Of a stretch of 64,000 bases of DNA, positions 5,655 through 64,000 are shown one piece after another. The stretch comes from Moniliella sp. 'wahieum' (Eukaryota). Location: contig RSEE01000055.1 of NCBI GenBank assembly GCA_003971905.1, positions 186,001 through 250,000 on the forward strand. The letters are read 5' to 3'. How positions within the stretch are numbered: the stretch's first letter is position 1; each line of letters begins with the position of its first letter. Made by a program: the position numbers and the translations under genes. A model generated the notes under the pieces. It saw only the letters and a program-made list of their open reading frames with translations, ran no database searches and was not told the DNA's origin.

Positions 5655-6621
5655 GTGGCGCGGATGGAGGAGGGTGGTGCGGGAGCGGCAGCGGCAGCGG
5701 AGGGGGGGGAGGGGGGGATACGAAGAAGATGACGATGGAGATGAGGAGGAGGAGGAGGAGGGGAGGAGGAAGGACAACAGGACAACGGCAAGCGCAAGGC
5801 CCCCAGAGAACGAGCAGGCGGGGCGACGGGTGATGTTGAGCTCACCTGGGTGGTCCAGCGAGGAGGCTGGTCGCTGCAGCCTCGATCGGATTCTGCGGCG
5901 TGCAACGTCTGTGTCAGAGCACGCCGCCCGCACAGCGCCAGTGTGCCCACCGCGCCACGCGCCCCGACGGACAACTTTTGTGTTACAATTGCAATCCAAC
6001 TCTGTTCATGCACATGTTCATGTTCAACTGAACGTTCACATCGACATCCCCCTCCTCGCCCGGCCTCCCCTCGCTCGCCTTGCCGCTCGCCGTTGCTCAG
6101 CGCTCAGCGCTCACCCCCCCCCTCTGATCACATGCACACTCTGCTACTAGCCCGCCACGCCGGAGCGCACAGTTGCCGCTGCCGCCAAGATGCCGAAGCA
6201 GGACGAGGCTGGTTGTGCGGGCTTTGCTATTGCGAGCGCTCCATGTTGGGGTGCACTGCTTGGCGACCAGGATGGATTCGGTACCGGACTCCCACCGTGC
6301 GTGATGGTGGGCATTTTTCTGACCTGCGATGCGCACGGCCCGAGTAAAGTCAGCAGCCAGCCGCTCAGCCAATCAGACAGTCGTCCCTATCGTCCCGATC
6401 CCTATTCAATTGTTCAAGCCACTGAGTACTGAATCACGAAAGCGGCGCTTAGCGCGCTCATTTTCAGCCACTCAGCGGGCCAGAGAGTAAGCACCCAATC
6501 GCTTCCGCCGCCATGCGGACCGCCCAACGCACCATCGTGCCATTCAAAATTCCCCCTCCGTTGGCGGGCAAAGAGGCCCTTGTTCCACAGCCATCTCACA
6601 ACTCTCGCTATTCAGTAGCAG

Positions 6622-6700
6622 CCTCAGTATCCTCAGTATCCTCAGTATCCTCAGTATCCTCAGTATCCTCAGTATCCTCAGTACCCTCAGTACCCTCAGT
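6622..6700. repeat. 9-bp tandem repeat: (CCTCAGTAT)x6, (CCTCAGTAC)x2, plus a partial unit
   Basis: Read directly from the sequence. Confidence 0.95.
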
Positions 6701-6939
6701 TGAGCCGTTGAGGGTCCCGTCGAATGGTTTAAAGCTCAACGTGCTCAAGCTACGAAACGGGGTGTTTTGTGCTCACTATCAGTACCCCTCCCCGCCCTCC
6801 CTGAGCCTCCCAACCGGCAACCTCCGAAAAGACTCAACATGCTCCAAACACCTTGATTATGATCATCGTGGAGGACGAATGAGGAAATGCAAGCCGCTGG
6901 GGGTCCCGGGCAGTGGCCAGGCCACTTGGTCAGGCACAC

Positions 6940-7788
6940 TTACTTTTTCGGGCGGAAGGTTTGCTTGTCGCCCCATCCGTAGTTGTTGTAGCTCTGCGGC
7001 CGTCCCTGCGTGGGCATCAAGAGCATTGCACGTGCGCGCTTGATGGCCTTGGTCACGCGCCGTTGGTTTTGCTGGAGCAGCCGCGTCTCGCTACGCGGGT
7101 AAATTTTGCCCATCCGACTCACATAGGGCGCCAAGAGCGAGACGTTCTTGTACGAGTCGTCAAACAGCGACGGTTTCTTCGGGTTCAGCCCCAGCTGGAA
7201 AAACGGGTCGTACTTCTCTGCCACATGACGACGCGGCGCAAACAGCGCAGGCCGCTTACGCGCCGCGATCGCGTCGGTTCCTCGTACTCCATCAGATCCG
7301 GCGTGGTGAACTGCCGAGCCAACGTTAGTACAGCACACCTCAGGCTACAAGGCCAGCACACATGGCATGCAAGCGAGAGAAATACGCACCGTACCCCATT
7401 CCAGATGGGACTGCAGTTGGCGGCGCACAGTGGCCTTGCGCGAGGTGGCCTGCATCGCATTGTCGGTCATGCGCCGCGTCTCAACAAAGTTGCTCCGTCC
7501 GCCCGCCTGACTCCCATCCGCCTGCTCTCCATGTCCGTCCGACTCTCCCCCCTCGCTCGGGGATTGAGGCGACTTGAGGAACGTGCGCGGGCGCGTGTCC
7601 ATCCGGTTGAGGTGGGACTTTTGGATGGAGCGAGCCAGCTGCTCGAGTGGACCCGAAGGCGGCGCGGTGGGGTTGTTGGGGTCGGACACGCCGCTGAATT
7701 GCCGGATGCCACCAACGGCGAAGCGGGCGGCGGGAGTAGGCGCGGAAGCCAGGCCGCAGCGGCCCAGGGAGCGGATGAGCGAGCGCAT
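6940..7788 (-). CDS. RSM18: Mitochondrial ribosomal protein S18 (bS18m)
   Basis: Arg/Ser-rich presequence-like start MRSLIRSLGRCG; S18 domain DPFFQLGLNP...YKNVSLLAPYVSRMGKIYPRSETRLLQQNQRRVTKAIKRARAM; internal intron or frameshift. Confidence 0.85.
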
Positions 7789-8316
7789 CGTCGTGGTGCC
7801 AGCTGTCAAGAACGCCGGTCCTTGGTTGGCGCGGACGATGGAGGGAGCGAGGAGAGCTTCTTCGGTTACGTAACAGCAGCCATGGCTGAACATTCCCAGC
7901 ATTGCCGGTGACAAGCATGTGACATGTGACCATGTGACCAGGCGCCCAGCGGCGAAGAAACTTTCAAATCGGAATGGAAAGTTGCAACTGCAACCTCGCG
8001 GAATCACCGATCACGAGCACTATGCAGGCGCCATACACAAAGCAGCTGGTCCAATGCCCCACTATATTCGAGACCATTACAGGCCACCCCGACCACGGCC
8101 ATCCCATCCCAGAAGGGGGCAAATATCAACTGCATCTAGCCCCCTGCTCCCACCCGGCCCAAGGCGCGGACGAGAGCAATCCAAAGAGGGGCGGAGGCAA
8201 AGGGAACAGGAGTGGAGGAACAAGAAAGGAAAGGAAAGGGAATCAGGGTAGTGATTGTCGGTAGGGAAAACAGAGCCATAATGCATACGCACCCGCACCT
8301 AAGCGTTGCTGCTCTC

Positions 8317-11300
8317 TCATGTCTTCTTGAAAGGATTGTGCATCCGAGACCGGCGTTTGCCACCAAACACGCTGCTGGTATCCGGGAGAGGGAGCCCGAG
8401 CCCGAGGCAAACTCGGCGGGGATGGGCGGCACCGGGGGCGGAACCAACTCGGGGCTTGCCTCGGCGCCGCGAACAGAAGGCGACGTCGGATTCGTTGCCA
8501 TCGTCGTCCTGTGGCCTACGCGACGCACGAATCCAAATGCCTTGGATGGCGCCGAGAAGGCTGTCTTGCCCACCTGGCCCACCGCCTTGATCCCGGCCTT
8601 GCCCACTTGCCCAGGCACAGCCACCGCGCCGCCTCCGCCGCGCGTCGCAAGCGGCACCCACGCGGCCCGCCACGACAGAGCGACAGTGACAGTCGGTTGG
8701 TTGTCGCCAGCGCCTTCGCCCACCAGCGGGACAGTGACTGTCAAGGGTTCGCCTGAGACGGAAGAGAGGTCCAACTGAGCCTGGCCCAATGGATCTGGCG
8801 TGCCCACTTGATCCCAATCGTTCATCGTAATCACCACGGGCTGCGTCGCCCGAGACGCCACCACGACCTCTTCCAGCGTCTCGTTAAAGTCGGGATCAAG
8901 CGTCTTCTTCACCACCTTGGACTTGGCCGTCCGCTCGCCGTCAACCAGGATGCGAGCGTACGGGTCGGACGACTTGCCTCGATCCGCCGCGCGCAAGTGA
9001 GCAGCGGAGACGAGTGGACGGTGAGGTACCCATGGTTGTCAAAACGCTCCGCCCGATCCAGGCTGAGGGGCAAGGGAACGTACTTGCACATCAGCGTCAC
9101 ACGGTTGCCTCCCTCGCCCGAGCCACGCTTGGCGGTAAGCGGGATGGTCACAGGTTTGTCGAACGCCTTGCTGAGCAGCTCCCGAGTCGAGCCCTCGAAC
9201 TCAGCGTACACATCGTCCGGGTCCTCGCTGATACCCTTCCGGAAGCGAATGAAGAACCGCGAAGGAGCCAGCTCCCGAATCACTCGCTCATACACATCAT
9301 CCAGAGTCAGAGTACCAGAAGACTTGGACGGCTCGGTCTGGTAAGAGGGCCAGGACGACTCGTCAAACCAAATCTCAATTGACGTTTTCTCCCTGTTGAC
9401 CGACGCAGAAAGGACATTGAAGGCAAGCATGCCGCTCTTGGACTCTAGCAACTGGGGAAGGGTACGCGAACGGGTTCAGGTTCGGGCTCCTTCTCCTCCT
9501 CAGCCTCGCCCTCACCGCCTGTAGCCTTTTCACCCGACGTCTTGGGGTCCGTCGCATCTTTGGCTTGAACATCCGCCTTCTTGGCATCCGCGGGAACAGC
9601 TTCCTTGGCCTCCTCCTTGGATGAGCGATCGGGCTTCGCCTCCACCTTCTCTCCGCCATGTGCAGCAAGGAAGTTGACGCCTTGCAAGTTGAGCGCAGGG
9701 ACAAACTCCACATCGTACTCGACAGTGCCTTTGTATTGATGCTTACCGACCGCGATCATTTCCCGACGCTGCTGTTTGCCCAAGGACTTGAACGGATACT
9801 CATTCTCCTTCTTGTTCTCCTCGGCCAGTTCGGACACTGGGATAGTCACCATGCCCAAAGGACGGTGCTTGCCATTGTTCTGGAAATCTTGCAGCTCCAG
9901 CACCACAGTGTCGGACAGGCTGTGCACCGGGGAGTAAATAATCTCGTTCCAAACCGGGTCAAGGTTGCTTTCCTGCACATTGGTACGGTCGACGATCGCG
10001 CCACGGAAGCGAAGCTGTGCATACGGATCGCTCTTCCCTCCGGAAATGGCCTCGACGTTTTTGATATCCAACGCGCGCTTGGCCCAGACCTTGAGAGTAC
10101 CAATGGGAGGTGTGTAACCCTCCCCACCGTTCGCGCCGCCAGTCATAGCCACCGGCTTCCAAAGCGTGGAGAAACGCACTTTTGCCCCCTTGCCCAAATC
10201 AAACCATTCCTGTTCTTTTGCCTTTGCCTGGATCAAATCCTGCAGCCGCTTGGTCACTTGTCCTACGACTTGGTCGAGCCCATTTCTGAAGTAACAACTT
10301 GGATGGTCACCCTGCTCGCATCCCGGTTGGTCGATAAGAATTCCTTGGTGTACGCCCAGTGAGGGGTCGTGGTGCGCTTCTTGGTAGAGGACTCGCCCAC
10401 TGTCTTGCCATCCATCAGGATCCGAACCCACGTCGACGGTTCTCCCAGGCCTCGCTTGGACAAGCCCTTGGCCTCGTATACCGAGAGACGGACAATGCGC
10501 TGCGCGACTCTGGGATTGCTTCGGCCTGGCCATCGGGTCCCTTGGTAGCCGTAAGCACAGGCAAGTACTTGAGAGAATAGTTGAGAGTACCACGATACCG
10601 CCCGCCCATCTGAACCGGAGAAGAAAGACCCTCCCGCTCGGGCTCGGTGTCGAGCCCATCAAGAGGGTAGACACAATACCGAGCTTAGTGTCGGGACGGT
10701 GGTCATTGAAATCCATGAGATGAAGAGTAAGGAAGCCATTGAGGTTGCGGACCAGAGCATACTGCGTCTCCTTCCAGGGGGGGAGTTTGTCGAGGGGATC
10801 GTCTTGGTGCGTCCCTGCAATTCGCCATCGTCAATGGCCAACGCCACGTACGGATCGGGCTTTCCGCCGCCAAATTTAGCACCCTTAATGTCCGTTGCGG
10901 TAGCAATGGTGACCTGCACCACGCCGGTAGCCGAGTCCAAAGGTTGCCCCGCCAAGAGCTCTTCCACATTGAGAGAGAAGACATTAGGGGCATACACCAT
11001 GGGTCCAAGAATATTGTTGACTTGATCCTTAATAAAGTTAGTGAGACCAGGGAGGTTGTTGACGTCCCAGCCGAAAGTATGGCCACCAACGGGTTTCAAC
11101 ACATAATCATAGTAAGGTGGTTCCAACATCGTCACATCGACAATTTGCACGTGCGGGAAATTGGTGACCAGCTTCAGGCGCAGACGCAGGTAGCCATTGA
11201 ACGTAAAGTCTTCTACATCGATCGGAAGCGTAACCAGCGCAGGGCCTTTACCAAGTTTGACAGAGATACGAATGCGGGGGTTGACAATGTTGGCCGACTG

Positions 11301-12417
11301 CCGCGCGGTCAGGTCAATGTTGTCGTGAGGCGTGAAGCTAAACCTCCAATCCATCAGGACCACATCATCAGGAGTGTCGGGGAACGTGCGGACATGATTG
11401 ACACGGGGCGGCTTCGAGCCAAGGGTAAACGTAGACCTTGGGATTTCAAGTCAGTTTTTTGGACAGGCAGCGTCAAAAGAGAAACTGTGCTTACAGGCGA
11501 ACCGAATCGATAAACTTGGGAAGGTATTGCGGGATTTGCTGCTCGGCTTGGGAGACAACCATACCGCAGATAATGGGTTCAAAAATAGGCCAAAAGCGGG
11601 CCAGGAAGAAGTTGGCCCATTCCATCGTCTCGAACTGATCTTCCATCTTTTTGGACTGGAGCTCGCGTGTGATTTGGTCGCGGGCACGCTGACGAGCGGC
11701 GCATACCGGCGTTCCAGTATACAGCTGAAGCCGCGCCCACGGTCAGTGCGCCGCCGAGACCGAGGCCCAAGCGGGTGGCGAGCCAAGTGAGCAGAATCGT
11801 GCCAATGCGGCGGCAGCTTGAAACCACCAGAAGCCAAGGAACTTGTCCGGAACGGCAGCGGTAACAAGGGTGGACTCCCACGACATTTGCTTGACCTCAT
11901 CGCTTTCAACTTCCGCCAAGGTACGCGTTTCAGGGCCATCGCGAGGAGCTCCGAGGTATTCGGCAAATTCGTGAAGAGATTTGCGCTTGTCGGATCTGCC
12001 AGGGGGCACCATCCTTAGCCTCAGGGGTAGGGGCACCCTTTGCGCTGGGCGGAGGGGCGGGCGCGGCAGTCCGTTCAAAGTCCAGGGGCGGGTCGAGGTA
12101 GCGAGTGTTGAATGCGCGCGCACCCGTCCATCCAATGATTGCGTCGGGGCGCACCCCGCCAACGGCTGTGGTGGTCTGCGTCGCATCGCCCGAGCCGTCC
12201 TGGCCTTCCTGCTTGCTGATGCGCTGGATGTCGGCGAGGGAGATGGTGGGGCGAGCGAGACGGGCAGCTGGGCCAAGGTCCGAGGGCAGGCCGGCGCCGT
12301 CGGCAAGCTTGGGCGCCTTCTTCAGCGCACCTCCCTGGGCCGCAGCGGCGGCGACGGCGGCATCGGCCTGGCCTCGGGCGAGTCGGAGTGGGTGGGGGCG
12401 TCGTGGGGATCAGCCAT
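8317..12417 (-). CDS. TCB: Tricalbin (ER-PM tether: TM + SMP + multiple C2 domains), frameshifted
   Basis: SMP (VVLMDWRFSFTPHD...LRLKLVTNFPHVQIV...NILGPMVYAPNVF); C2 domains (GGKPDPYV, GGKSDPYAQL, AADRGKSSDPYA...KKTLDPDFNE); ends approximate. Confidence 0.88.
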
Positions 12418-14171
12418 GCTGGCACAGACAACGCAGGAGGCGGTGGTGGAGAGAGCGAAGAAGACGAAGGCAAGGGCGAGGCAGCAAGTGAGGTGGTGAC
12501 AATGCCGCCCAGCCCATGCGCCGCACCACACCGCACAGCCCAGCACAGCACCACCACATGCGGCCTGCAAGCGAGCGGTGCAGCGTCGGCAGGTCCTACT
12601 GGCAGCAGCCTGCTGCCGTGCATGCACACCGCCCCCATGCCCTGCACCTGCCGAGCCTGCGCCCGCCGCCGACGTCACCGCGTCACCTATCATGCGTTCC
12701 GCGTGCGCGTGAACGCGTAATGTTCAAGTTGAACGTTGGCCGCAGCACGCCAGTGCTCCCGGCGGCCGTGCACAATGGTCCCTCACGCGTCACGCGCACG
12801 GGGCACCGCCCACTGCTGCCGCGCCTCGCTCCCTGCTCGCCCCCCTGCAACGGCAGCTGCCCTGGGCTGCCGCAGCCCCGTGTCGCTCTGCGCAGCACAG
12901 CAGCAGTGTCCCGCAGCGGCGTGCCGGCGATCTCATGCACATGCCCAGGGAGCAGTGGCGGATGGGTGAGCAGCCCCATGCGCCTGCAGAGCTGCAGCGC
13001 CGCCGCCGGCTGCAACGTGCCTGTGTTTGTTGCGCGCTGCGTACCTGTGTTTGCGGCGCCACGCTCCCGACGCGGCTACCACCGTGTTGGCCGCACCACA
13101 GCGCATCACCCGTCACGTGACATTCTGTGGCAGTGGTGGTGGCGCTGCTGGCAACAGCACGCGGTGCGGGGCTGTGCTGTGTTGCGCTGCGCTGCAGTAG
13201 ACAGACGAAGGGGAGCCGGCAGCCTGCAGAGCGATATCGATGCTCCCTGGTCCACGTCCCGATATGCAATGCGCTCAATCTACGATGGAGCAGCCCAGAG
13301 CAGCCCGCGCCCAGCAGCGCAGCCGATCGTTGTTCGGCAGCCCAGCCAGGCACGCCGGCAGCAGCACGCAGCCACGCAGCATCCAGCCCAACGCGTGCGT
13401 ACCAGCGCATCGCCCCAACGTACCATTGGCCTACCCACCGGCATAGCGAGCGACCTCGCCAGCCTCACCGGTCACCCGCCTCACTGTAGTCAGTACTCAG
13501 TGCAAGCTCAGTTCCAGTCATCGATCCGCTCATCCATCATGCATCATCCATCATCGACATCATCGATCATCCGGCCCTCCCCGCGGGATTGGCTACTTCT
13601 ACGCTCCATCTGCCCAGGCCCTACTACGTACCAGGCTCCCTGCTCCGCCCTGCCCCCCTTTCTCGCTCCGGCTTCTCTACGCTCCCCCCAAACCCATCGG
13701 CATCATGCATCATCGACCATCGATCATCGACGATCAAGCGGATCCAGTCGATCAAGGAAGAAGCGGGGTCCAACGTTCAACGGAAGCGGCCTGCTTAATG
13801 CTTGCCATTTTGCCTAGTTCTTCGTTGGTCTAGAGCGCGCGAGCGCTTTGTGCGTTTCTGCATCCCGCCCTGTGCCACTCCTGTGCCTCTGAGGGGGCGG
13901 GACTGCGGTACGTGTCTGCGGACCGAATTACACACGAACACCGCCAAAACACGTGGGCTTGACCGATTCCCGCGTTGCTAGTTGCGAATTCCTCTCGCTG
14001 TCTATTCCGCTCCCGCGGGGCGGCAAGGCGGAATTGGGGGTGGCGAGTTGGGTTGGCGTCGCGCTGGGCGAGACGCTTGAAGCGCCAAGCTTGAAGCTTG
14101 AAGCTTTTTGAAGCTTGCCTGCGGACGACAGCACCCACCCTACCACGCTCTGGGTCCCTGCTCTCTTGGTC

Positions 14172-14930: not shown

Positions 14931-15030
14931 AGCATGGATTTGGGATTGCATGACATGGCATTAAATGGGATGAAATGCCAAGTTCCGCAACGGGTTGAGC
15001 CGCCGGGACAAGGATGGGAAGAGACGAGCG

Positions 15031-16613
15031 TCAAAAGACAAAAGGAATGAAACGGTAGGGCACAATTTCGCAGTACTTGTCCCAGTCCTTGCCGTACTTG
15101 CGTGCGCAACGATCAAAGTCGCGTCCGCAGCGGTGCGTAAGGACGGTGAGGAAGAACGCAGCGTAAAAGTACGGGATGAAGGAGCCCGTGCCGGCACACG
15201 CGCCCCAGGTGAAAGACTGGATCCAGTCGGCGGTGTAGTTGGGCTTGCGAAGGTAGGCCCACCAGCCGTCGATCAGCAGCGCGTTTCCGTGTTCGGTTTG
15301 CAGGTACACAGGGTCGCGCAGCGTCGACCAGGGCCACTGGGGGAAGGAGAAGCGGGTCTCGATGCTGCCCTTTTGAAGCAGGATGCGGAAGCGCGACTTT
15401 GGGCCATGGACGAGTCAAAGACCCAATGCACAAACAGGAGCGTGCCAAACAGCGCCACGTACCCCAAGGTAGAAGAGGTAGGTGCTGGGGTCGTGCTGCG
15501 ACATGTACACGATCGAGTAGCAGTAGGTGAAAGGCACACCGGCCAAGTTCCAGTACGAGACGAGGAAACCGGCCTTCTCGTAGAACATGTCCCAGGTTTG
15601 CGGGATCAGCTCTTCGCCCTTGCAGCAGGCATTGAGGTACAGGCCAGTGGCAAGGATCATGCAAGCCATGTTGGGCGACACGTAGCCGTACTCATCGTAT
15701 TGCCGCGCAGCACCGGCCAAGGAAATCTCAAAGGCAGGACCCAAGGAATGCGCACCTCGGCCCACATCTTGAGGTCTACCACGCCAAAGCGAGGGTTGAG
15801 CGAGGCACCCATAAAGTAGTCATAGAAAAAGTTGCCACTCATCCGGTGCGTCGTGCCGTGCACGACGGCCGACACGTAGAGGATCAAAGGATAGAGGAAG
15901 CAGAGATGATGGCCACCGTCATATACTCACCGAAGTGATACATGATCGTTTGCAGTTGGTACACTCCGCTAAAGTGCAACGCGGCGGTGACAACCAGCGT
16001 AGCATACAGAGAAGAAAGCGCATTGCACTTGTACCACAACGTCTTGTATCCAAGAGACGGCACAGGCAGACCCTCTTGCCAGTAACCAGGCATCACAACC
16101 GCAAGGAAGAGCTGGAACACGATCAGGCCGCCGTACCCGCGAATGGCACGCCAGGTCGGAAACGCCTCGGTGTAAATATGGTTCCCCATGCGCTGGATAA
16201 ATGGGTAGACGTCACTCAAGCTCGAAGGGTACACCAACTTGCCATCGTAGAACCAGAGGCAGATCCAGAGGTAGTACATGAGGGTAGGGAAAAAGACCAT
16301 CATGAACGCTGTGCCGACAGGACCACCAAACTCATATCTGGGGCAATGTGTCAGAGCTGAAAGGAGCAGGATAACATACATACTCATGGTGCTGGTCGAG
16401 CAGCTTGTCCTTCTCGCGGCCCTGCTCGGAGATGACGATGCCCGGCTGATGGTGGACCATCTCGTTGCGCGCCTTGATGTTGCCCCACACAATCTGAGGA
16501 TCGCGTGGGTCAGGGTGGCGCCAGCGGTGGTTGTAGGGGCCCTTGGTCTTGGGAACCTCGGCCGGGTTGACCTTGGAGGCCGGCTTGCGTTCCCGCATGC
16601 CCTCAGACGACAT
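15031..16613 (-). CDS. ERG4: Sterol C-24(28) reductase (ERG4/ERG24 family)
   Basis: EYEFGGPVG after a 46-nt intron (16338-16383); SGNFFYDYFMGASLNPR; KGEELIPQTWDMFYEKAGF; LLIDGWW...RKPNYTAD; HRCGRDFDRCARKYGKDWDKYC. Confidence 0.92.
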
Positions 16614-17904
16614 GGTTGTGGTGGAGGCGTGGAGAAGGGAGCGGCCCTCAATCCTCAGCTGAGGGTTCTTCGCGGCGTTTACCCAATCCACCTCATCTTC
16701 CCAGTGTGCCGTCAGTCACGCGTCACGTGGCGGCAGGCGCAGACCGCGCCATTGTGGCCTCTGGCTCAAGGCCAGTGTAGGTTCGGGCCGCCGCGGCTTG
16801 ATCGATGGATCGTCCATTCAATATTCAATCTCAGACCCCAGGTAGGGTTACCGGCGGATACCGGCAGCGTGCGCTACCGATGGCCTCGATTGTCGCATTG
16901 CGCTTGCTGTGCCACACCTTCCCGCGCGCACGCCAGGCGTCCCAGCGCGTCCCTCGCGCCCGGCGAAGCGCGAATCCCTCAAGGGGTGGTCCACCTCCAT
17001 CCCCATCCCGGACCGGCTGACCTATCAAAAATGCATCTGGCACCGTCACCCGGTAATCTGCACGCCTGAGTTCCACCCTCCCGCCACGTTCTTTTCTGTT
17101 TGCTCCACTCCGCTGGTTCTTTGCGAAAATGGAGTAACGCAAATGGTGCGCTCACCAAACCTTGACGGACAGCTCTCCGTACGCAGACTGAATACGGGTG
17201 CAGGCCAGGATGGCTTCCAACGATGGCATATGTCCACACGGTGGAAACGGGCCGAGTTGGAGGCCATCTTGACGTTGCTTGGCCCGGGGCGCGCTTGGCA
17301 GCATACAGCACCCATGGTATAAATGAGAGAGCTGTTGAGCGTTGAGCTGATGGCTCGTGCTTTGGCCAATGTCCCTTCAGTTCCTCCTCAGGTCTAGGAG
17401 TTCCGCTGTTTTCCCTCTCCTGTTTGGCTCCTTGTCCTGCAGCTTAAACCCTGAGGCCTGAGGCTCAGGCCTGATGGCGACTCGCCGCTTGATGTTCCTC
17501 TGTAGGCATTGCTGGTTACCACAACCACCACCATCAGTGCGATTGCATCACCCACTCGAGGACGATCAGGACTCCAGGTCTCATCAAGAACCACCAGGTG
17601 TAGTTGAATCTCAACCGCATTGCGTCCGACAAGCGCATTTTTGCTTTTTTGAGGAGCTCCTGCTGACGCCCCCTCCCCCCGGCGCGCAGCCAGGCTGTGG
17701 CTGCGTCTTGAACTACCCCAGCGTGTGGGGGTCGTCGGGGTTCGCCGTTCACCTTGAACGTTGACGTGCAATCCCAAAATCCATGGCACGTTGTCATGTT
17801 GATCTCGATGGTCGCAGCACGAGTGTGGGACGCAAGTACGAGCGGTACAAGCGGGCTGTCGCATCCCTCTACTTGCTGAAGAGGTGAGCTGGGATGCCAT
17901 GAGC

Positions 17905-17966
17905 ATCCTGCCAAAATCGTCTAGTGCTGGGTGGCAATCCTGCCAAAATCGTCTAGTGCTGGGTGG
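17905..17966. repeat. 32-bp-period tandem duplication (ATCCTGCCAAAATCGTCTAGTGCTGGGTGG...)
   Basis: Two identical 30-bp copies starting at 17905 and 17937. Confidence 0.95.
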
Positions 17967-18943
17967 GGATACCATCGGCCCAACGTCCCACTGAAAGAAG
18001 GTTACCGGGTACGGGCAAAACGGTGGAGGGCAGTGAAGCTTGAAGCTGGTGCAGGTGCCAGTTGCAGTGACGCGGTGAACCGAGGTGACCGGTGAGGTGC
18101 CAGTGAGGCCCTCAGCTGAAGGCGTTGGTACATCCAGCAGGGCAAAACGTGGGCGAGCATGCGCTTACCGCGACGCCTAACGCTTAGCCTAAGCACCCTG
18201 CACCCAGCCACTTGACAGTCACTGGTCTTCGACTAGCTGCTAGCCAGCAGTCGTCAGTTCATCGATCATCGATGCTATGCTGGAAAGGATGCATGATGCA
18301 TGACATCATCATCGATGCGCGCTGCGCAGCTCAGTGCGGAGCGGGGTTCCAGCCGGGGCTGCACTGGGCCTGACGTGGCGGGCAGCAGACTCGCGCTCGC
18401 CACGGCGTCGGGCTCTGCACGGCCGCACAGGCCACACAGGGCACAGGCCTAGAGCGTGCCGGCGCGGCAACGCAAGCTTGGCAGCGGGCAGGCCAGGACC
18501 GACACCTCCGCACCCCAACCCCCAGCGCCGCACTGGCCAAGTGCCCACCAGGCCACACCCGGCCACACCACCCTACGCTGCTGAGCTCAGCGTAGCCATG
18601 AGGCTCATGCATCACTGGGTTTGGCCGGCTGCATCGCGGCTGCATCGCCAGCGGGGTTTAGTGATTCTCGTGATTGCTCGGTTGGATGGATATGGCGATG
18701 CAGTGGCCGTGTGCCTGCGGCGGTCACATGCCGGCATGTCCGTGCCAACCCAGGCCGCCAGCGACGACACCCGTAAGCGCATGCCTGGTCCCTAGTCCTC
18801 GCCCCCCTGCAGACGGCACGCATCCATCCCACACACCTGCCCCTTGCGCCGCAGCACCCCCACGCAGCACCCACCCGTCTCTGCGCCGGCTGGCTGCGCA
18901 GCGCTCCTGCCTCCCCGCCACCACCACCCGCGCACTGCCTCCC

Positions 18944-37938: not shown

Positions 37939-38666
<728 letters not shown>

Positions 38667-47471: not shown

Positions 47472-48194
47472 CCCCCGCTGGCCAGGGAACCCGGAGACAT
47501 CGGTTGTGGGATGAGCTCCTGCCAGTGGATGTAGAGAGGGGAGGACTTGAGTGGCAACCGGGACGAATGGCCTGGAGTTGTGCATGGCCACACGACTGGC
47601 CTACACCCCCGCTGTCCAGGATGACACCTGAACGAGCCGAGCGCTTGTGGTTGGTGTATTGTGCGACCGCCAGATGCTTGTAGAAGTCTTAGAAGTAAAA
47701 GTAGTAGGGGTTGCGCCCCGAAGCGATTTGGTGGGCAAAAGTAAAAAGCACCAGTTATAGGTGTAGTGAAAGAAAATTGGAAACTTGGAGTAAATGCGGT
47801 CCAAGGTCGTTTGGCATCAAAATTGGATGCGTTTGGTAGTTGTTTGGTTCCGCATGCCTGGTGCCAGTGGGGTCCATTGGGCATGGGAAATGAACGGGCG
47901 CTATGCGTCAACCGTCTTGATCTGTTTGGGTTCTCTTTGTTGTTGAAAAAGAGGAGTGGAAGAAGTTGGGTGACCACCCCCCCCCATCCTTTCCCCAGGT
48001 GCCCCGGATGAATTGGCAATCCGGGGCGTGTAGCCGTGGGTGGGGCACTTGATGAGCAGCCACCCCCGCTTTCTGCGATTCGCCTGCGCCGTTTTGTCGT
48101 TGGAGGAATTTCGTCTCGTTGACGATACCCGACACGTTTTGTTCCGTCGTGTGTTGTCCCTAAAAATCATTGCCCCATCTGTGGGGGACGAGTG

Positions 48195-48270
48195 TGCCGA
48201 TTGTGGCGGTAGTATGCCGATTGTGGCGGTAGTATGCCGATTGTGGCGGTAAGGTGCCGATTGTGGCGGT
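48195..48270. repeat. 20-bp tandem repeat (TGCCGATTGTGGCGGTAGTA), about 4 copies, inside the LTR element
   Basis: Read directly from the sequence. Confidence 0.95.
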
Positions 48271-48392
48271 GGTGTTGTTGGGCGGGAGGACGGGTGTGTC
48301 TTGTGGGCTTGGCGGCTTAGCTTGGGCTTGTAGGCTTGGGGGTGGGCTTGCTTGAAGAGCGCTCCCCTTCCGGGGGGATCAGATTGTAGCTC

Positions 48393-48631
48393 TGTTGGCC
48401 TAGGGAGCCGGACGGGCAGAAGGATGAGGAGAAGGTGATGGATTGGAGCCAGAGTTGGGTCTGGGTACAGAGGCATCTATATAGGAGGCTGGACTAGGCA
48501 CAGGGACAGTGAGTCACACAGAGAGAGTGCAGGGCACAGGGACAGTGACACGCAGGGACGTCAGCGTGGAAGCCGATGGAACCGAGGCGAACCTGGTCTA
48601 CCGACTGGGAGCCAGAGGATCACAGTCAACA
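48393..48631 (-). repeat. 5' LTR (239 bp)
   Basis: Near-identical to 47232-47471. Confidence 0.93.
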
Positions 48632-52657: not shown

Positions 52658-53268
52658 GATACCTCCCCTTCCCTTTCCCGCCAAGTTGGTGGTGTGTGTA
52701 TTGCCAATGATGTTGCTCCCCCTGCCCCCCCCCCTCACACACATCCGCCTGAGGTCCAGTTCGGCATTCATTGTTCCTCTGTGTTGGTCTCTGTGCACGC
52801 GACGCTCCCAGACGTGTCCTGATGAACCCTGAATTTATGTGTAGTCTCTGTGTGTGAGCGGCTGAGACCAATGTTGTACCGAGATAGGGGGTGACGATAT
52901 TGGGCCGGACACGAGAAGCCTCTAAACGGGAGGGAGGAGAACAACACAGATCGATTCATCTGAGGGTGCAGCTGGGCCACCACGTCCTAGGTAGGGGAAA
53001 GAAAAAAATTAGACGTCCAAACAACATAACTAACTAGTCGGTGAGCACCTCGTCCTACGTGCGTGAACTGTGGCCGTTGCCGGTTGAACTTCAACGTTGA
53101 TGCTACCTTTTTGCCGTTGGTTTCGCCGCTCTCCTTCACAGCATGTCACCTTAGTCTGGAGTCACTCTCCTGAGATCTGAGATGGGGGACTGTTTATGGG
53201 GCTGTACAAGGGTTGCAGCAAACAGAGGGATAGATTGTCGTATGCACAAAAGGGTACTAAGTAGGTTT

Positions 53269-55843: not shown

Positions 55844-58800
55844 TCATCGTACTGATATCTGCCCCTCAGGTGCTGCCTGCACTGCCTGTGCGCCCGGCGC
55901 GCGCATCCCCCCCCCCGCCGGCCGCCGGCCGAGTGCGGCCGCCGGTGCGGCTCCTCCGTCGACAGCGGCGAGAAGGGCCGTGGCCCCGGCTCGGAGCGCG
56001 TCGCCGACACGGCACTGGCCCCCGGACTGACCACCATCTTGTCCCGCGACACCAGCACGCTCTCCCCCCGCCCGGCCGAGACGGGCGGCGTGCGCCGGGA
56101 CTGCTGCCTCTTCTTCCCGCCCCCGTCGCCCTCCGCCACTCGACATGCGGCGCCGTTTGGCCCCGGCACGCGGTGAGCCCGCCCCCGCTGTCCCGCGTTC
56201 ACGCTTTAGCCGCCCGCCCATTCGCACCCGTAGGAAGCGCACTGCGGACGCTGGCCGCACTCGCTGCGCTCGTCGCACTGGCGGCATTGACGCCCGTGGG
56301 GGGGCACCGCTACCGTTACCGGACAACCGAGCGGTCGTTGGCGCCGCCGGCCCACTCGGCACACTGGTGGGTCCCCTCGGAGGCTGAGGCTGAGGCTGGT
56401 ACCGCACCCCCCCCGCCAAGCCCAGCAATGCATCCACCGCCCCGCTATCCGCCTCCTGCAGTTCCTCTTTCCCGCTTTCCTCCGAGTCCGACTTGCGGGT
56501 CTTGGTCTTGCGGCGCGCTCGGGGCGACGCGCGGGGCTGCTGGGGATTGGCGATGGGTGGGGAAGGGGTCAGGCCCGGAGCAGATACGGATACGGATGCG
56601 GTGCGGCTAGGACCAGGCTCAGGGTTACGCCGCGCCGGGTCTGCGCCCGGCCCCAGTGGCTGGGAGGGCGGTAGCTCGCGCTCGGCTGCTACTGCGTCCG
56701 GGCGCTCGGCTCCGACCCCCGGCCCGATCGGGCGGGGGGCGGAGGTCGGGCTGCATGACAGGAAAGCCGCTTGGGCGCGCAGCTACTGGCACGCCAGGCC
56801 CGAGGCTATGCAAGGCAGGTACGTTGGCATCCGGCACGGCAGGCGCATTTTCGCCTTCCCCTGCCTCGTAGGAGCCTGTGAGATACTGCGCTGTCGTACT
56901 CACATCCAGGGCGTGGGCGGGGAGCGCGGAGGGATGGGCGTGTCGTTGGGCTCGGCAAGGAAGGTGCGCAAGCGGGCAGCGATCACGGGGTTCCGGGTCC
57001 AACTGGGCAGCCCGCACGTACGCGTCCCGTGCGTCCTGCCGCTGGTTGTTGCACGTTTCGTACAGACAGCCAAGGTTGAACCACACCTCGGGGATGCCAG
57101 GGTGGAGCTGGATGGCGCGGCTGAAGGCATCGAGCGTGTCTTCGTACTGCTCAATACGGTAGTACAGCAGGCCGATCGAACACCAGAACGTGGCTTGGTT
57201 CCCATCGCGGAAAACAGCCTGCTGGTACGCCTCGTACGCCTTGTCGTAATTCTCTTGGGCCATCAAGGCGCGGCCGAGAAGGTACCAGGTCTGAGCATCC
57301 GCCGCATCGGCCTCGAGCGAGATTGTCAGATACTCCACCGCCCGATCCTGGTCGGCAAAGGGGGTTTCAGAATGGAGATAGAGCCCCCCCAACTGCTGGA
57401 GCACCTTGGCGTGCTGCGGTAACTCGCGAGCACACGCTCGTACGCTTCTTTGGCCATCACAAAGTCCCGCTGTAGCTCGCACACGTGGCCCACCTGGAAC
57501 TGGATATCCGCCTGCTTCAACGGCGCAGGCGGATCGGGAAGGATGTAGCGGAAACAATCGAGGCTGGCAGGGAACTTGCGCTGTTGCTTGTAGATCACCC
57601 CGAGCCGGAAAAAGATCTCGTTTGCCTTGTCAAAGTCGGCATCCATGCTCACCACGCTAGAAAAGGCTTGCTCGGCATGCTCCAGCAGGCCATACCGGTC
57701 GTACAGGATCCCAATCCCGTACCACAGCCGCGGCTCCTTGGGGTTGGAGAGGTTGTAGAGCGCTTTCTGGTACGCCGCATACGCACTCTGCAAGTCGTCC
57801 ATCATCAGGTAGCAGTGGCCCAGCGCACCCCACGTCTCCCCGTCCTCAGGGGCAAGCTGGAGCGCGCGCTGCAACACTTCCACCGCCTTGTCCTGCTGTT
57901 CCATATCCCGGTACACATTCCCCAGCGCCCGATGGGCCGCCAACGAGTGCGGCTCGTGCTGCAGTGCGTTCTGTATCGAATGGATGGCTCGTTCGTAGCC
58001 ATCCGGGCCGCCCATCGTCGTTGCCGCCGAGGCTGCATGGGGTGGGAGGTTAGCGCCGTATCAAAGCGAAGCAAAAAGACAAAACAGAACCAACAGGTAC
58101 GCACCAATCGACAACCAGGTTTCCACGTTGGCCTGGATCAGTTCTTTCATCACCCCTACCGCCTCTCGGACGGGGGAGGAAACTGTGCCGAAGATGGACG
58201 GAGAGGAGGCGAGAGCTTGGTCCCAGCCGCATCCGCCTCTGCATCCGCGCCCGCAGCGATGGCAGTCGTAGCAGGGTCATTGGCCATCCTCAGCCTCCGC
58301 CCAGCTGTGGCATGAACAGGCACGGGCGCCACCACACGTCCCGCTGCCGTGGCCGCCGCTTCCATCGGCTCTTCCCGTAGCAGTGGCGACCGTATCGGAA
58401 GAGGCATCCTCCCCATCGTGGGAGCTGCCTCAATGCGCTGCGCCTCAACTTGAGCATGAGCAGTCTCCATGTGGTGGGCATGAGCTGCGGCTTCCATCTG
58501 GGCCTGAGCCTGAGCCTGAGCCTGAGCTGGGCCTGAGCTTGAGCCTGACCTGAGCTTGAGCTTGAGCCTGAGCTTGAGTATGTGCTTCAGCCTGTGCCTG
58601 AGCTTGGGCTTGCGCTTGCGCCTGTGCATGAGCTTGGGCTTGGGCTTGGGCTTGGCTTGGGCTTGTGCCTGAGCCTGAGCTTGAGCTTGAGCTTGGGCGG
58701 CCTGGGCCCGTGCTTGAGCTTGGGCTTGAGCTTGGGCTTGGGCTTGAGCTTGGGCTTGAGCTTGGGCTTGGGCTTGAGCTTTTGCAGCTTGTGCTTGAGC

Positions 58801-59911
58801 CTGGGCTTGAGCTTGGGCCTGGGCTTCAGCTTCAGCCTGAGCCTGGGCCTGAGCTTCGGCTTCGGCTTCAGCTTCAGCTGCAGCCTGAGCCTGGGCCTGG
58901 GCCTGGGCCTGGGCTGGCCTTGCTTGAGCTTGCGCATGTGCTTGTGCTTGAGCATGTGCTTGCGCTTGTGCATGAGCCCGTTCCTCTTCGACCTCGTCCG
59001 GCTCTGGAGGCGCAGTATAGGGCGGAAGAAGGCTCATGGCCACACCCTGTTGGCGGTTATGATCGTATTCCCGCTCGTATGCCATCAAGCGTTCGCGTGT
59101 CCGCTCAACAGGAGGCAACACATGCAGTGCATGAGGCCTCGCCGCGCATGGTCCCGTTCCCACTTCCTCCCACTCTCGCTTCGGCCGATCCCGCTCCTCG
59201 GCCATCAGGGCGAAGGGTGGCGCGCGGCTCCCCCTGGGCGTGGGCAGCTTGTGCGTGTGCTTGCGCTTGTGTTGGGCATGGGCTTGTGCTGAGCGTGGGC
59301 ATGGGCATGTGCTTGGGCTTGGGTTGGGCGTGGGCATGGGCCTGGGCCTGGGCCTGAGCATGGTACTCGTACTCGACTCATACTCTCTCTGGGCGCGCTC
59401 GCGCTCATATGCCGCATGCGCCTCGCGCTCCTCCCATGGCACCTCCCCGGCTGGCGAGGCGACGCCTCGTATCGCCCGCGCCGAGGCGGCATGGCAGGAT
59501 GCCAGGGGGAAGCATGCACACTGCGTGGCGGCGAGCGGAGCGGAGACCCGGGCGCCATGGCGGGGACGGGGTGGGGCCCGTGCGGGCGGCAGGCGAGTAG
59601 TGCGGGTGGGGATGGGCCAGGACCGAGGGCGGGCGGGCGGGCGGATGCATGCGGGCGTCGGGATCGGGATCGCGCTCGCGGCTGGCATAGCGCGCAGGGT
59701 AGGGCGCGGGCGGTAGGCCGGCTCAGCGTCGTACGCGGCGGCGGCGGCGGCGGCGGTAGGGCGGGCGGTAGGCGGGCGGCGGCGGCGGGTAGGCCGGGGG
59801 CTGCCGGGCGGCGGCGGCGGGGCGGCGTAGGCGTAGGGCGCGCATAGACGTCGGGCACGGGGGGGCCGCGCGGGGCGGCGCGGCGGGCGGCAGACGCTGG
59901 CTGTAGGCCAT
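55844..59911 (-). CDS. SSN6: General transcriptional co-repressor Ssn6/Cyc8 (TPR), frameshifted; ends approximate
   Basis: TPRs: [77 protein letters not shown]...[14 protein letters not shown]...[26 protein letters not shown]. Confidence 0.92.
58495..58978 (-). repeat. Coding hexanucleotide-period repeat encoding (QA)n in Ssn6
   Basis: CAGGCT/CAAGCT/CAAGCC/CAGGCC units on the minus strand giving AQAQAQ... Confidence 0.92.
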
Positions 59912-60647
59912 CGAGGGAGCGGGAGCGGGAGAGGTGGTGGATGCGTCCTCGATCGGCGGCGGCGAGAAACGGCAAGAACAAAGCAACCCGCGGGGAGCGT
60001 CAGCGGTGGGCACATGCATGGCACCAGTGACATGTGACTGGTGACGATGACATACATGATGCAATCGTTGGACTCTGTTCCGAGGGAAACGACGAGAATA
60101 TAGAATAGCTCTCTGCATCCCTGCAGCCTGCGCATCTGAGACTGTACCCTGGCGGGTGATGTATGTAAACGCTTAGCGCTTACTAGTTGACGTTGAGCTA
60201 CTAGTTGCGCGTTGCGTTCCTCGGACTCAGATGCATGATCGATACTCCATCTACTCAGTACTCACGCTTCAAGGTACTCAGGACGCAACCCTCAGCGCCT
60301 GAGTCAGGAGTGCAATAGCGCATAAGCCATCGACGTGGACGGTGGACCGTGGACGGTAGCCAGTAAACGTTGGGCCGCGGCGCGTGGACCTTGATGGACC
60401 TTGGACAGTAGACCGTGGGCCGTGGAAGTTGAGTACTTGAGTATTGAGTACGTTGAATCGATTAAACTCGATTACCGGATTACCGATTCAACGTAGGACG
60501 ATGCGCGTGGCACGATGGCAAAACGTGGTCGGCGCCAGGGGGTGGCGAAGCGTGGCAGTCAAGCTCCCATCTATTTCTCCCGCTCGCTTGATCGCACGCC
60601 ACATCCCAGCACGTACTGTCCGTGTCACACACACTGGCCCCTTGGAG

Positions 60648-60675
60648 CTTGAAGCTTGAAGCTTGAAGCTTGAAG
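60648..60675. repeat. (CTTGAAG)x4 array of 7-bp interrupted palindromes
   Basis: Read directly; longest perfect example seen of the window-wide motif family. Confidence 0.95.
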
Positions 60676-63600
60676 CTGGACACCATCGATTGCCGGTACC
60701 CCCCCAGTGCACCCCCCCCATCGCCATTCGTACTAAGCCACCGCTGCGCTAACGTTGCCAACGGAAAAAGATCCCGCCTCGTCAGCCTGGCGCCAGGGCC
60801 CTGGTGCCGTTGGTCTCACTCGGTTGTCCAACTGTTCCACACCATGCATCATGCATCACAGCCATGTCATACACACATGCCACTTGTCACGTGCATCTTA
60901 CACGACATCATGCATCATGCATCATTTGTCATGCATGTCACTAGCTCATCACCTACGCACTCGTCCGAATCTCAGATCTCAGACTGGATCATGCATTACA
61001 TCACGCGTCACGCGACCGGAGTCACCCGGTCACAGGTCCGATCTCAGACGCCACGCATCGTGCATCAGACATCATGCATACACCATGCATCTAGTATCAC
61101 GCATCACAAGTCACAGTTCTCCGATCTTGGTTCTCAGTTACTCGTGTACTCAGTGCGCCCAACTCAGACCTCAAAACACAGTGGACTCGTACGTACTGTC
61201 ACATGTCACATGTCACATGTAACGCGCCACGCATCCCCCACGTCACGTTCAGGCCTCCGTTCTTAGTACGTGTACGTACTCGGTACCAGCCCTCATACTG
61301 AGACCCGGTGTAACTCAGTGCTCAGTACGTTTAGTACACTCTGTCCCTAGTCCCCAGTACGTACTCAATACTGAGATCGATGAGACTCCCTGCACACCAA
61401 CCATCGATCATTGATCATCATGCATCATGTATCATGCATCACGCAGGCTGAGTGCTCGCTGAGTCAAGCGTACGAGTTCAGTGTTCATATTCATAACTCA
61501 GGCCGTGTACTCTGTACGAGTAGGTGGTGACGCTGACGACCTTGCCGGGTCTTTTGGGGGACAGGCCGGCCAGGGCGCCTCGAAGCCTTGTTGCGAGGTG
61601 CTACTACTGGTTGAAGCGTGAACAACTGGCCGCAAGCAGATGGCCTCGATTCACGGAAAGGGGGAGCTGATCGTGATCACGCGCACGCCGGCCACGGATC
61701 ACGAGTTCGCCCAGCACCCGCAATGCACTCCAATCGGGGTTTGGTGTAAGCGAACCACGATGTGCAATACAGCCAAATGACCTAGCATAACTATTTGTCG
61801 TCTAGTATAATACGCTGAATGAACGATGAGCTCGATGAGCGAGCAGCTGGCGCACTCAGCGTTTCTTAAGTTGTCTCCGTGCATTGCATTCCCATTGACG
61901 AAGTTCCGCAATTGCCAATATGAATTCAAGAAAGGAGACGTCAATTCCAAACTTCCATCATCATGTCATAGGGTAGCCTCGGAGTAAGACGGCTGCGGTG
62001 GACCCGAGATGGTCCGATCCAGGCTATTACGACCCGCCTGCTCCGCACATACCCAGTAAAGCGTGCTCCGCAGTCCAACCAAGTGTGATGATGGTTGATT
62101 AAATTAGGTGCCGTGGCCCGAGGGGCCATGCATCCGTGCGACAATAGTCGCTCCCGGCACAAGTCCAAGTCGGCTGGCCTGAATAAGGCCACCGAGCTTC
62201 CAGTGTCTTGGCGCGACGACTGTCGCTTCTATCCCTGTTTCCTTTTCCTTTCTTGGTCGCGTCTGCGGCGACCATCCCCTTTTTTGGCGTATCTTCCTTT
62301 CTACACCCCCTGTTGTTTGTTTCCGTTTCCCTTTTGATCTTGCCTGTACCCCTGGTTGATGGGGATCCTTTCCCCCACCTTCCATTCTCCTCATCCCTCG
62401 TCCACCCTCTCGTCCCTTCCCGACTATCCCTGTCCAACTCCCGCCCTTTTTCCAGCCAATTGATCTAGTATAGGCAGCCCCCTCTCTCCTCTTTTAGTGA
62501 CCGTCTCCTCTTCCGACCTCGTCATCCAGAGCACTCCATCAGTCCAGTCGCGCGAGCCCTCCTTCAGCCGCGTCGATTTCTAGGCTCTATCCGGTCTCAA
62601 TTAAGGCAGTATTTGACCGTCACTGCCTCCTCCGGTCCCTAAGTCCCGGAGGCTTCAGACACGCTACTACGGCCCAAGCCGGTGCAGACACAGCCTTGCC
62701 ACAGGTGCAGCCGCCCCACCAAAGGCCTCTCTTCGTCCCTAGCTACACTCGGATCCACCAACTAGCCCAAGCCCGAAATTACTGTGAGTCGACCTACCCT
62801 ACTCTCCTAAGGCCTAAGGGATCGTACCCCCAAAACCCCGGGCGTCCCCCCTGGTGGGGTCCGCCCCGTGACACCCCTCTACTGCATAATAGTTTAGCGG
62901 CATTGTCATTAGTAGTTTGCAATCTCAATCGTTCCCATCATTCATCCAATTTCTTCGTCCCCAGCGTTTCGCTATTTCCTTGTTCTTCCGCTTCGCACCA
63001 TCCTGTCCTTTGCTCTTACTTCTTCTCCACGAACGATTGCTACATTCCTTGACCTAGTGTCGACTGTGGTCTCCATCTCCTTAGGTCCCCGAGTGTGACA
63101 GGTGCAAACCCTTGTAAACGGCCAATCGGAGCCACCCACGGAATGTCCGGTTTCAGAACCTGGTCGAAGCGAGCGGATGTAAAGGCACGACAGAGAGACC
63201 CACTGGTTTGGGTGGGTGGCTGTGTGCAAATTTAACGCCACATCTCAGACCCTCCGAGGACGGAGCAACGTGCAACATACATTGTCAAAAAAACCGTTAA
63301 AAAGAGGTCTACATAGGTACTCTGGGACACCTGGCTGTTTGGTCATTACCACACTTGACACCGTAGAAGGCGGACCAGACGGAATCCCAACTGGAGAATA
63401 AGCGTTACTCTTGCAGTGCGATCGATGTGAGCCATACATTCGTCAGCGTAGTATAAGGGGGAAGGATAATCAATGGTGACCGGTGAAGCTTGAAGCTTGA
63501 AGGGAGAATGTGGAATCGCAGCCAACGTGCAAGCTAAGGTTGGAGAGAGGTTGGTCGGTATGCAACAAGACGGTCAATCAAAGGATCACATGGCACAGCT

Positions 63601-64000
63601 TGGAGGCCTTAGACATCTGTTTTACTTGGTTGTTCGGGTTGACGTTTACCGTTTATTTATAGTACAACTGTTAGGAGAAAACTAAAGGGCTACTGTGGAT
63701 ATTTATCAGCTCCCGCCGCGTTTCACATGTTTTTGTTTGATTGTTTTTTTTGATCTCTCGGCCCTCAGGGTGAGAGGCCTGACGGTGGGGCTTCTCCGCA
63801 TTCTTTCTATTTGATCGTTGATCCATGACGCATGACATGCACTAGTGACTCTAGTGACTACTGAGAGGGCCCTCTGTAGTCATTAGCCATTTTCAAAAGG
63901 TATATAGGTCACATATATGGAAGAGCATCGGGTGTGGTGTATATTACATCCCACACTGTTGGAGTACTCTCATCTAGGATCGATCTAGCGGTGCAGCTGC

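Follow-up and report, generated by a model that had tools for sequence, protein, structure and literature searches.

The 64,000-nucleotide stretch of DNA analyzed here (hereafter the window) covers positions 186,001 to 250,000 of contig RSEE01000055.1 of Moniliella sp. 'wahieum' (assembly GCA_003971905.1), and its noncoding spacers carry short tandem arrays of self-complementary 7-mers centred on a TNA triplet, where N is any base. These heptamer arrays, and the process that may have written them, are the subject of this study. The window is eukaryotic in character, with a base composition of 59% G+C and intron-split genes. Its minus strand encodes a RasGEF (approximately 1100–6005), the mitochondrial ribosomal protein S18, ERG24 (15034–16654), an Hsp70-like protein, an RSC-like bromodomain-BAH protein, a CCCH zinc-finger protein, a fatty-acid hydroxylase, NDUFS1, and a TPR protein that we label Cyc8-like (56628–60261), while the plus strand encodes DHFR (from 14112), a Ras protein, and a BAR-domain protein. 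Two tricalbin-like genes with SMP and C2 domains (8139–12400 and 19518–23500) lie on opposite strands with about 7 kb between them. The proteins closest to the NDUFS1 of the window are 92, 91, and 82% identical to it, and the best named match of the less conserved RSC-like protein comes from Tilletiaria anomala (48%) and the next from Ustilago trichophora (44%), with Microbotryum and Rhodotorula relatives ranking below them; on this evidence the DNA belongs to a basidiomycete, probably one of the Ustilaginomycotina. An earlier reading of the same DNA from its letters alone (the original prediction) had described the spacers as filled with head-to-tail 7-mers that differ in sequence and share a TNA core with complementary flanks; all 14 arrays that it cited as examples are present where it had placed them.

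In the divergent spacer of about 190 bp between the RasGEF gene (minus strand) and a plus-strand gene starting at 6191, a GCTCAGC array (6095–6113, with two full 7-mers at 6095–6108) has three TCA cores and matches its left flank only. The open reading frame (ORF) of the neighboring plus-strand gene contains a 9-bp repeat, CCTCAGTAT (6622–6700, 8.8 copies, 98% matches), which is non-palindromic and includes CTCAG. A cluster of period-7 TCA runs at 13465–13782 uses the palindromes CCGG, GTAC, TGCA, TCGA, and ACGT, with left-matching and right-matching types interleaved, and an AAGCTT-G-AAGCTT-G-AAGCTT array with the unit CTTGAAG (14087–14106) stands directly upstream of the DHFR gene. Two copies with the units CGTCACG and ATTCAAT (16715–16829) are found beside the 5′ end of ERG24. 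At 17450–17474, two CCTGAGG units precede an inverted copy, TCA-GGCC-TGA, whose register is shifted by one base, and four copies with the palindromes AGCT, CCGG, TCGA, and TGCA lie at 18034–18303; a perfect 32-bp tandem duplication occupies the spacer at 17905–17966. Nine copies of the form T.A-palindrome-T.A fall within 24211–24889, two of them being perfect 10-bp palindromes with complementary centres, and a complementary centre base also marks one unit of the CCTGAGG/CCTCAGG arrays at 26738–26773. The locus at 27771–27791 reads GATAATC, GATAACA, TGTAACA; because its non-palindromic middle unit stands between two palindromic ones, we call it chimeric. The AGTGACT array reported previously at 27803–27834 is present (2.4 copies), with the added detail that a period-9 array of the palindromic unit TAGTGACTA (3.3 copies) runs into it, the whole spanning 27799–27836; this period-9 array is the single clear example with a 3-nt stem. 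An AGCT-palindrome array with four cores, one of which has A instead of G at its centre, lies at 28368–28393 and matches its right flank only.

Further along, three copies (CTTAAAG, GTTAAAC, and CATGATG) sit beside a plain tandem CGTTACA array (32097–32185), 2.6 units of GATCATC are found at 44373–44390, and a CTTCAAG array with four TCA cores (44754–44779) again matches the right flank only. Four copies at 46329–46948 use the palindromes GCGC, TCGA, GATC, and GTAC. Nearby, two heptamer arrays built from CTA and CCGG, thus with a turn other than TNA, form an inverted pair (45841–45863 and 46142–46164, 87% complementary) that encloses 278 bp. The pair may mark the two termini of a miniature element, or its members may be near-cognate arrays of independent origin. 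Two copies, at 53091 and 53171, lie in the convergent 3′-3′ spacer between the BAR-domain gene (plus strand) and NDUFS1 (minus strand), the locus extending over 53091–53183. The longest array, AGCT-(TGA-AGCT)x4, occupies 32 bp at 60646–60677, and the densest cluster, with nine chains that include the palindromes TGCA, GATC, CGCG, and CATG, follows at 60843–61441, where TCA is nearly always on the C-rich strand. Two CCTAAGG units are found at 62806–62819. A second chimeric locus (63475–63502) reads GGTGACC, GGTGAAG, CTTGAAG, CTTGAAG; to the GGTGACC and CTTGAAG copies already described there, the non-palindromic GGTGAAG between them is an addition. With regard to other simple repeats, a run of 18 C is present at 41029–41046, and other runs of at least 8 C adjoin heptamer arrays (after 6113 and near 60700). 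The ORF of the minus-strand TPR gene contains long hexamer repeats, with some 80 copies of TGAGCT and related units at 58505–58977 and 59247–59363, which probably encode a low-complexity tract of the Gln/Ala type.

Perfect tandem dimers with a 7-nt period number 46 in the window, and 34 of them have a unit that is fully self-complementary around its centre base, compared with about 11% by chance. In simulated sequences (100 for each of the Markov orders 1, 3, and 5), the mean number of period-7 dimers was 3.8–5.0, of which 0.44–0.60 were palindromic, with a maximum of four palindromic dimers in any sequence. No other period behaves in this way: palindromic units make up 0/74 at period 6, 0/9 at period 8, and 1/9 at period 9, while at period 5 their proportion (33/104) is the same as in the simulations. 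The predicted excess of self-complementary period-7 repeats over Markov controls is thus confirmed. The 12 non-palindromic period-7 dimers, sorted by eye, comprise five purine-rich low-complexity repeats, five dimers whose TNA-centred unit has a single unpaired position, and the two CCGG-containing arrays of the inverted pair at 45841–45863 and 46142–46164. Arrays of three to five units exist, and self-complementary arrays can fold, so that ordinary replication slippage on existing palindromic heptamers, with hairpin-forming units expanding preferentially, has to be considered, and it may well add to growth once two units are present. Slippage should nonetheless leave the sequence of the unit unconstrained, which is at odds with the palindromic share found here, and the count of single palindromic 7-mers is only slightly above expectation (1162 against approximately 1000), with TCA cores at 2.0 times and TGA cores at 1.5 times expectation when the arrays are included.

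The elementary structure behind these dimers is shorter than two heptamers. Among all trinucleotides, TCA, TTA, TGA, and TAA are most often flanked by 4-bp palindromes (0.10–0.13 against a baseline of 0.063), so that the TNA centre noted in the original prediction is real. The 10-mer T.A-palindrome-T.A occurs 94 times, where 6.6 are expected and the maximum in 50 simulations was 13; the 15 other frames of the form X.Y each yield 6–38 10-mers, numbers that track base composition. The centre bases of the two triplets are identical in 78 of the 94, and these 78 copies of TNA + 4-bp palindrome + TNA, against 1.6 expected, constitute the core of the pattern. When the middle 4 nt are allowed to mispair, identical centres are still found in excess with one unpaired position in the filler (17 + 17 against 5.9 + 5.9) and close to expectation with neither position paired (19 against 15.9). 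A scan of loops of 1–5 nt combined with half-palindromes of 1–4 nt revealed a single enriched combination, a loop of 3 with T..A ends and a half-palindrome of 2 (77 against 2.2); half-palindromes of 1 nt (10 against 6.8) and 3 nt (2 against 0.7) were not enriched. All 16 possible 4-bp palindromes are used, AGCT being the commonest (17), and the TNA centre base is nearly free: C or G is the centre in 67 and A or T in 11 among the 94 10-mers, in a window with 1849 TCA and TGA triplets against 524 TAA and TTA. Roughly 3% of the window's TNA triplets bear a copy. A weaker set of look-alikes has near-cognate turns such as CAA, CCA, CTA, and TGC (37 against 7.8 expected), of which about one-third are, by our count, phase-shifted TNA arrays. 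Complementary centres, which make the 10-mer a perfect 10-bp palindrome, account for nine of the 94. Perfect palindromes of the form TNA + 4-bp palindrome + TN′A were recorded at 6029, 17465, 24211, 24880, 28306, 50052, 51300, and 53091; we estimate that about 1.6 with G/C centres would arise by chance, against nine found, and they may be the inverted-copy outcome of the same process.

To describe how the palindrome relates to its surroundings, we denote by ab the two bases left of the first TNA core and by cd the two bases right of the last core, with b′a′ being the reverse complement of ab. The 94 10-mers collapse into 80 chains, of which 71 have two cores, four have three, and five have four. 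Among the 71 two-core chains, 20 agree with the left flank alone (filler b′a′ab), 21 with the right flank alone (filler cdd′c′), 11 with both, and 19 with neither. A one-sided copy therefore amounts to a period-7 run of 12 nt, and the runs of the 41 one-sided chains are all shorter than 14 nt and mostly 12 nt long. The starts of the runs gather at unit positions 0–2 and their ends at 4–6, which is to say around TNA and not at the borders of the unit. Of the arrays with three or four cores, seven are not chimeric, and five of these seven remain open on one side, which is what growth through repeats of the same event would produce. According to a hand tally, left and right types, as well as C and G centres, are balanced and interleaved, and a strand or replication bias was rejected on these grounds.

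These lengths bear directly on one origin that the original prediction had proposed, namely repeated footprints of a transposon that duplicates a 7-bp target of the symmetric form xyTNAy′x′. In favor of it, perfect 14-base dimers exist, 34 of the 46 period-7 dimers are palindromic, and a small number of simple 7-bp duplications occur in which the TNA-centred unit is not palindromic (at 17334 and 32119). Two full copies of a 7-bp target would, on the other hand, occupy at least 14 nt, so that the 12-nt runs rule out a 7-bp tandem or target-site duplication for the one-sided copies, and the boundaries of the runs do not fall where such units would end. Decay of originally two-sided copies fails as an explanation as well because, by our estimate from the ~22% of copies with one unpaired filler position, decayed palindromic targets would leave about three-quarters of chains matching both flanks, whereas only 11 of 71 do. 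Furthermore, proteins do not read their targets by covarying free outer bases, the chimeric loci would require improbable ancestors, and the window yielded no terminal inverted repeat (TIR) element among the 25 listed of its 82 inverted-repeat pairs and no transposase among its 259 ORFs of at least 110 codons. We consider this origin very unlikely, and the outer bases, which are indeed free as previously reported, reflect copying from the flank and not the tolerance of a target.

The two chimeric loci are decisive on this point. In each of them, the two bases at either end of the non-palindromic middle unit have been used to build the neighbor on that side, which argues that the ancestor was an ordinary ab-TNA-cd sequence. 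The anatomy of these loci and of the one-sided chains indicates that the palindrome is generated from the flank and was not a pre-existing target. It also separates the pattern from slippage, as had been supposed in the original prediction: slippage requires an existing repeat and can produce neither one-sided 12-nt structures nor chimeric loci. Since the comparison loci described below show no such bias in other fungi either, we regard slippage as a distinctly unlikely source of the pattern.

The direction of copying was examined in 12-mers of the form X-f-X, where f is the 2-nt filler. With TNA at the end of X, 37 of these 12-mers have a filler that reverse-complements the opening two bases of X (0.13 expected), and none has one that reverse-complements the closing two (0.17 expected). 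The mirror class, in which X starts with TNA, gave 41 and 0 for the two corresponding arrangements, with expectations of 0.1–0.2, and ten more 12-mers were of ambiguous type. This exclusivity implies a 7-nt hairpin in which TNA makes the turn and the stem measures 2 nt, the filler always being complementary across the turn. It also bears on a different transposon reading, in which the scars would be excision footprints of a hairpin-forming cut-and-paste element (Transib/RAG-like or hAT-like) that makes a 5-bp target duplication, ab-TNA, and adds two palindromic P nucleotides through opening of the flank hairpin 2 nt away from the tip. Such an element would yield exactly ab-TNA b′a′ ab-TNA, a fixed 2-nt P addition would account for the strict period, and palindromic footprints derived from the flank are known for Ac/Ds, as described in PMC4561436. 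Nevertheless, P nucleotides would be expected at either flank, whereas no filler reverse-complements the TNA end, and an asymmetric 5-bp nnTNA target would be unexpected for a two-ended transposase. We therefore judge this reading unlikely.

Evidence of the elements themselves was sought in the window. No element with the duplication of the scar was present among the 25 listed of 82 inverted-repeat pairs, and Pfam scans of the 259 ORFs of at least 110 codons identified no transposase, so that neither a TIR element nor a transposase supports any of the transposon readings. Target duplications of 5 bases, as the hairpin-forming element would make, do exist in this genome: an element of about 1.4 kb with long terminal repeats (LTRs) at 47232–48631 is flanked by a 5-bp duplication, ATGCC. 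Its 240-bp LTRs have TG...CA ends and are 100% and 96% identical in two blocks, it contains a 20-bp tandem repeat (48191–48270, four copies, 93% matches), and it lacks long ORFs, those of at least 110 codons that overlap it having given no Pfam match; it is probably a non-autonomous, recently inserted retroelement. Several further candidates were discarded. Remnants of transposon ends, considered by analogy with the footprints of Tc1 and Sleeping Beauty, were rejected as the source of the palindromes because all 16 palindromes occur and track the flank. Capped hairpins formed when a TNA 5′ overhang ligates to itself, odd hairpins of the hAT type, and a double snap-back at both ends were rejected on paper, each predicting a 5-nt spacing, complementary centres, or b′a′d′c′ filler, none of which matches.

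The copies are confined to noncoding DNA. Pfam-supported ORFs make up 30% of the window and contain 608 of its 2373 TNA sites, yet none of the 78 copies lies inside them, where about 20 would be expected, in line with the intergenic location originally described. None was found either in the coding-like segments of a home-made mask, a conservative one that covers 30% of the window and was used only alongside the Pfam-supported ORFs. This distribution makes an assembly or sequencing artefact extremely unlikely, as an artefact would neither avoid coding DNA nor be restricted to TNA sites with flank-templated filler. Within the spacers the copies are clustered, with ten in 60–61 kb, six in 27–28 kb, and five each in 13–14, 18–19, 24–25, and 61–62 kb.

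Clustering in spacers, often near gene starts (6095, 14087, 16715), would also be compatible with selected cis-elements, that is, with promoter, chromatin, or RNA-hairpin signals, and the centre base does follow the C-rich skew of the local coding strand. Even so, the pattern is not specific to promoters, since the copies at 53091 and 53171 occupy a 3′-3′ spacer, and orientation and centre base are random. With all 16 palindromes and all four centre bases in use there is no single recognition sequence, which bears out the earlier argument that one transcription factor could not account for the arrays; the units are copied from whatever flank happens to be present. In addition, about a fifth of the copies (~22%) have one unpaired filler position, consistent with decay in the absence of selection. 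Selection for such signals is thus an improbable origin, and the chromatin or promoter signal that the original prediction had listed among its candidate causes does not fit, although some copies may have been co-opted for regulatory use.

With the NDUFS1 of the window as a probe, we collected 80 loci (911,309 bases) from metagenome contigs of other eukaryotes, at 60–80% protein identity over the best segment. These loci contain 69 TNA-palindrome-TNA copies, or 0.076 per kb, as compared to 1.2 per kb in the window, a 16-fold difference. Two of the four closest loci (21 and 11 kb, both at 76% identity) have no copy at all. Nine of the 73 period-7 dimers in the comparison loci are palindromic, which is the chance level, and six of these nine represent one locus recovered from several samples. 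The comparison indicates that the heptamer signature is specific to this lineage.

We give roughly even chances to the reading that the heptamer pattern is a mutational scar of fold-back or template-switch synthesis at TNA and not a regulatory signal. According to this model, ab-TNA-cd in noncoding DNA would become ab-TNA-b′a′-ab-TNA-cd, the product that the sequence shows, by the addition of 7 nt, or the mirror event would take place on the other strand, in which d′c′-TNA-cd is written behind TNA-cd. The added ab-TNA-b′a′ would be a mini-hairpin with a TNA turn and a 2-nt stem copied from the flank, after which the original ab-TNA would be rewritten. In molecular terms, a 3′ end lying just past TNA, at a nick or a break, would fray and its A would fold back onto the T; a polymerase would then copy the two preceding bases (its own ab), return to the original template at a, and re-copy ab-TNA, and the looped-out 7-nt hairpin would be fixed at the next replication. 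Repetition of the event at either TNA would add 7 nt each time and would thereby generate tandem self-complementary 7-mers, with 6-bp palindromes spaced one base apart. Such an event would be a template switch within one strand that returns upstream of the point from which it departed. Of the candidate causes named in the original prediction, the staggered-cut and fill-in or hairpin-opening process comes closest to this scheme, with the refinement that the filler is always the reverse complement across a TNA turn.

Since the triplets are always T..A and the stems always 2 nt long, site and geometry are probably imposed by an enzyme. To our knowledge, PIF/Harbinger transposition is the only eukaryotic activity with the rule that T and A are essential and the middle base is free. 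Because this family cuts TNA under that rule, we speculatively put forward one of its IS5-type transposases, or a domesticated relative, as the enzyme that would fix site and geometry. More tentatively, it is possible that the lineage has a dedicated or misfiring enzyme, for instance a domesticated PIF/Harbinger-type nuclease acting with an end-joining polymerase, which would nick after TNA across open noncoding DNA and write flank-templated 7-nt hairpins; the identity of the enzyme is a guess. We favor the end of a nick or break over an ordinary replication fork because switches with an upstream return, for which the new duplex would presumably have to open, were not observed in primate comparisons.

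Several observations weigh against the scar model. The direct evidence for the pattern comes from one 64-kb window, and the direction of change, its rate, and the enzyme are all read from sequence anatomy, as is the very notion of an insertion. A simple fold-back leaves the exact 2-nt stems unexplained, as well as the absence of C..G, G..C, and A..T turns, even though pairing would be stronger at C..G than at T..A. Among the two-core chains, the 19 that match neither flank include eight with unequal centres, five of which are perfect 10-bp palindromes, and 11 with identical centres. In 21 left-only chains (two-core and three-core, scored by eye), the non-matching flank shares one base in 14, where about eight are expected, so some left-only chains may be decayed two-sided copies. 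Template switches that return before the point of departure, while possible in theory, were not observed in the human-chimpanzee and human-human comparisons described in PMC5453318, where the presumed cause is that the new duplex must be opened. Lastly, the 259 ORFs scanned with Pfam in the window include no nuclease, just as they include no transposase.

If confirmed, the scars would provide a clean natural case of sequence-specific templated insertion with fixed geometry, would add to the known template switches a class, with its return upstream of departure, that is unseen in primate data, and would offer a direct handle on the enzyme that fixes the geometry. They would also explain how the spacers of one lineage came to be filled with palindromes in the absence of visible transposons. 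Should a dedicated enzyme be involved, this would be an ongoing site-specific mutational signature that seeds spacers with 6-bp palindromes and hairpin-forming arrays, the raw material for regulatory sites. On a practical level, motif finders may mistake such arrays for transcription-factor sites, clusters of restriction sites, or transposon scars.

Literature searches returned no description of the TNA-palindrome-TNA heptamer pattern, in agreement with the original prediction, which had recognized no described system, and the properties of the copies indicate that the pattern belongs to none of the footprint families against which it was tested. A possibly comparable report concerns Ustilago maydis, in which numerous "10-bp repeats" have been read as transposon footprints (Laurie et al. 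2012, cited in PMC4081816); these resemble the scars of the window in being short spacer repeats, in their 10-bp size, and in coming from the same subphylum, a likeness of description only, the citing paper giving no sequence. Footprints of Ac/Ds and other hAT elements, and the P nucleotides of V(D)J coding joints, share with the scars the presence of short palindromes derived from the flank and the lack of any remaining element sequence. P-nucleotide palindromes abut their template, however, and may form at either flank, whereas the filler in the window is separated from the copied bases by the TNA turn and is strictly one-sided relative to TNA (37 and 41 cases against 0 and 0).

PIF/Harbinger elements (IS5-type, with TNA/TWA targets) follow the same triplet rule as the scars, T and A being required and the middle base free, and the window displays this rule in its 94 T.A-framed 10-mers against 6–38 in the 15 other frames. 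The family normally excises precisely and makes 3-bp duplications, unlike the scars, which add 7 nt, and no PIF/Harbinger element or transposase, including DDE transposases and Tourist-like elements, was found in the 64-kb window. In yeast assays of mPing, a member of this family, positions 1 and 3 of the target-site duplication must be T and A, with TCA and TGA tolerated, and the authors propose a cut that leaves a 3-nt 5′ overhang (PMC4561436).

Also among the closest known systems are the short template switches of the Ripley quasi-palindrome model and of the four-point model (Loytynoja and Goldman 2017, PMC5453318), in which the nascent strand reverse-copies a few nearby bases and returns, so that perfect short inverted repeats arise in one event. 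The scars share this feature, b′a′ being the reverse complement of the ab located 3 nt upstream, with normally copied sequence around it. They differ from the four-point events described for primates in that the return would lie upstream of the departure, so that the template is re-copied and a direct repeat results, a class unseen in those primate data. They differ also in frequency and form: known template switches are rare and generic, whereas the scars of the window occur at about 1.2 per kb in one lineage and always combine a 2-nt copied piece with a TNA turn.

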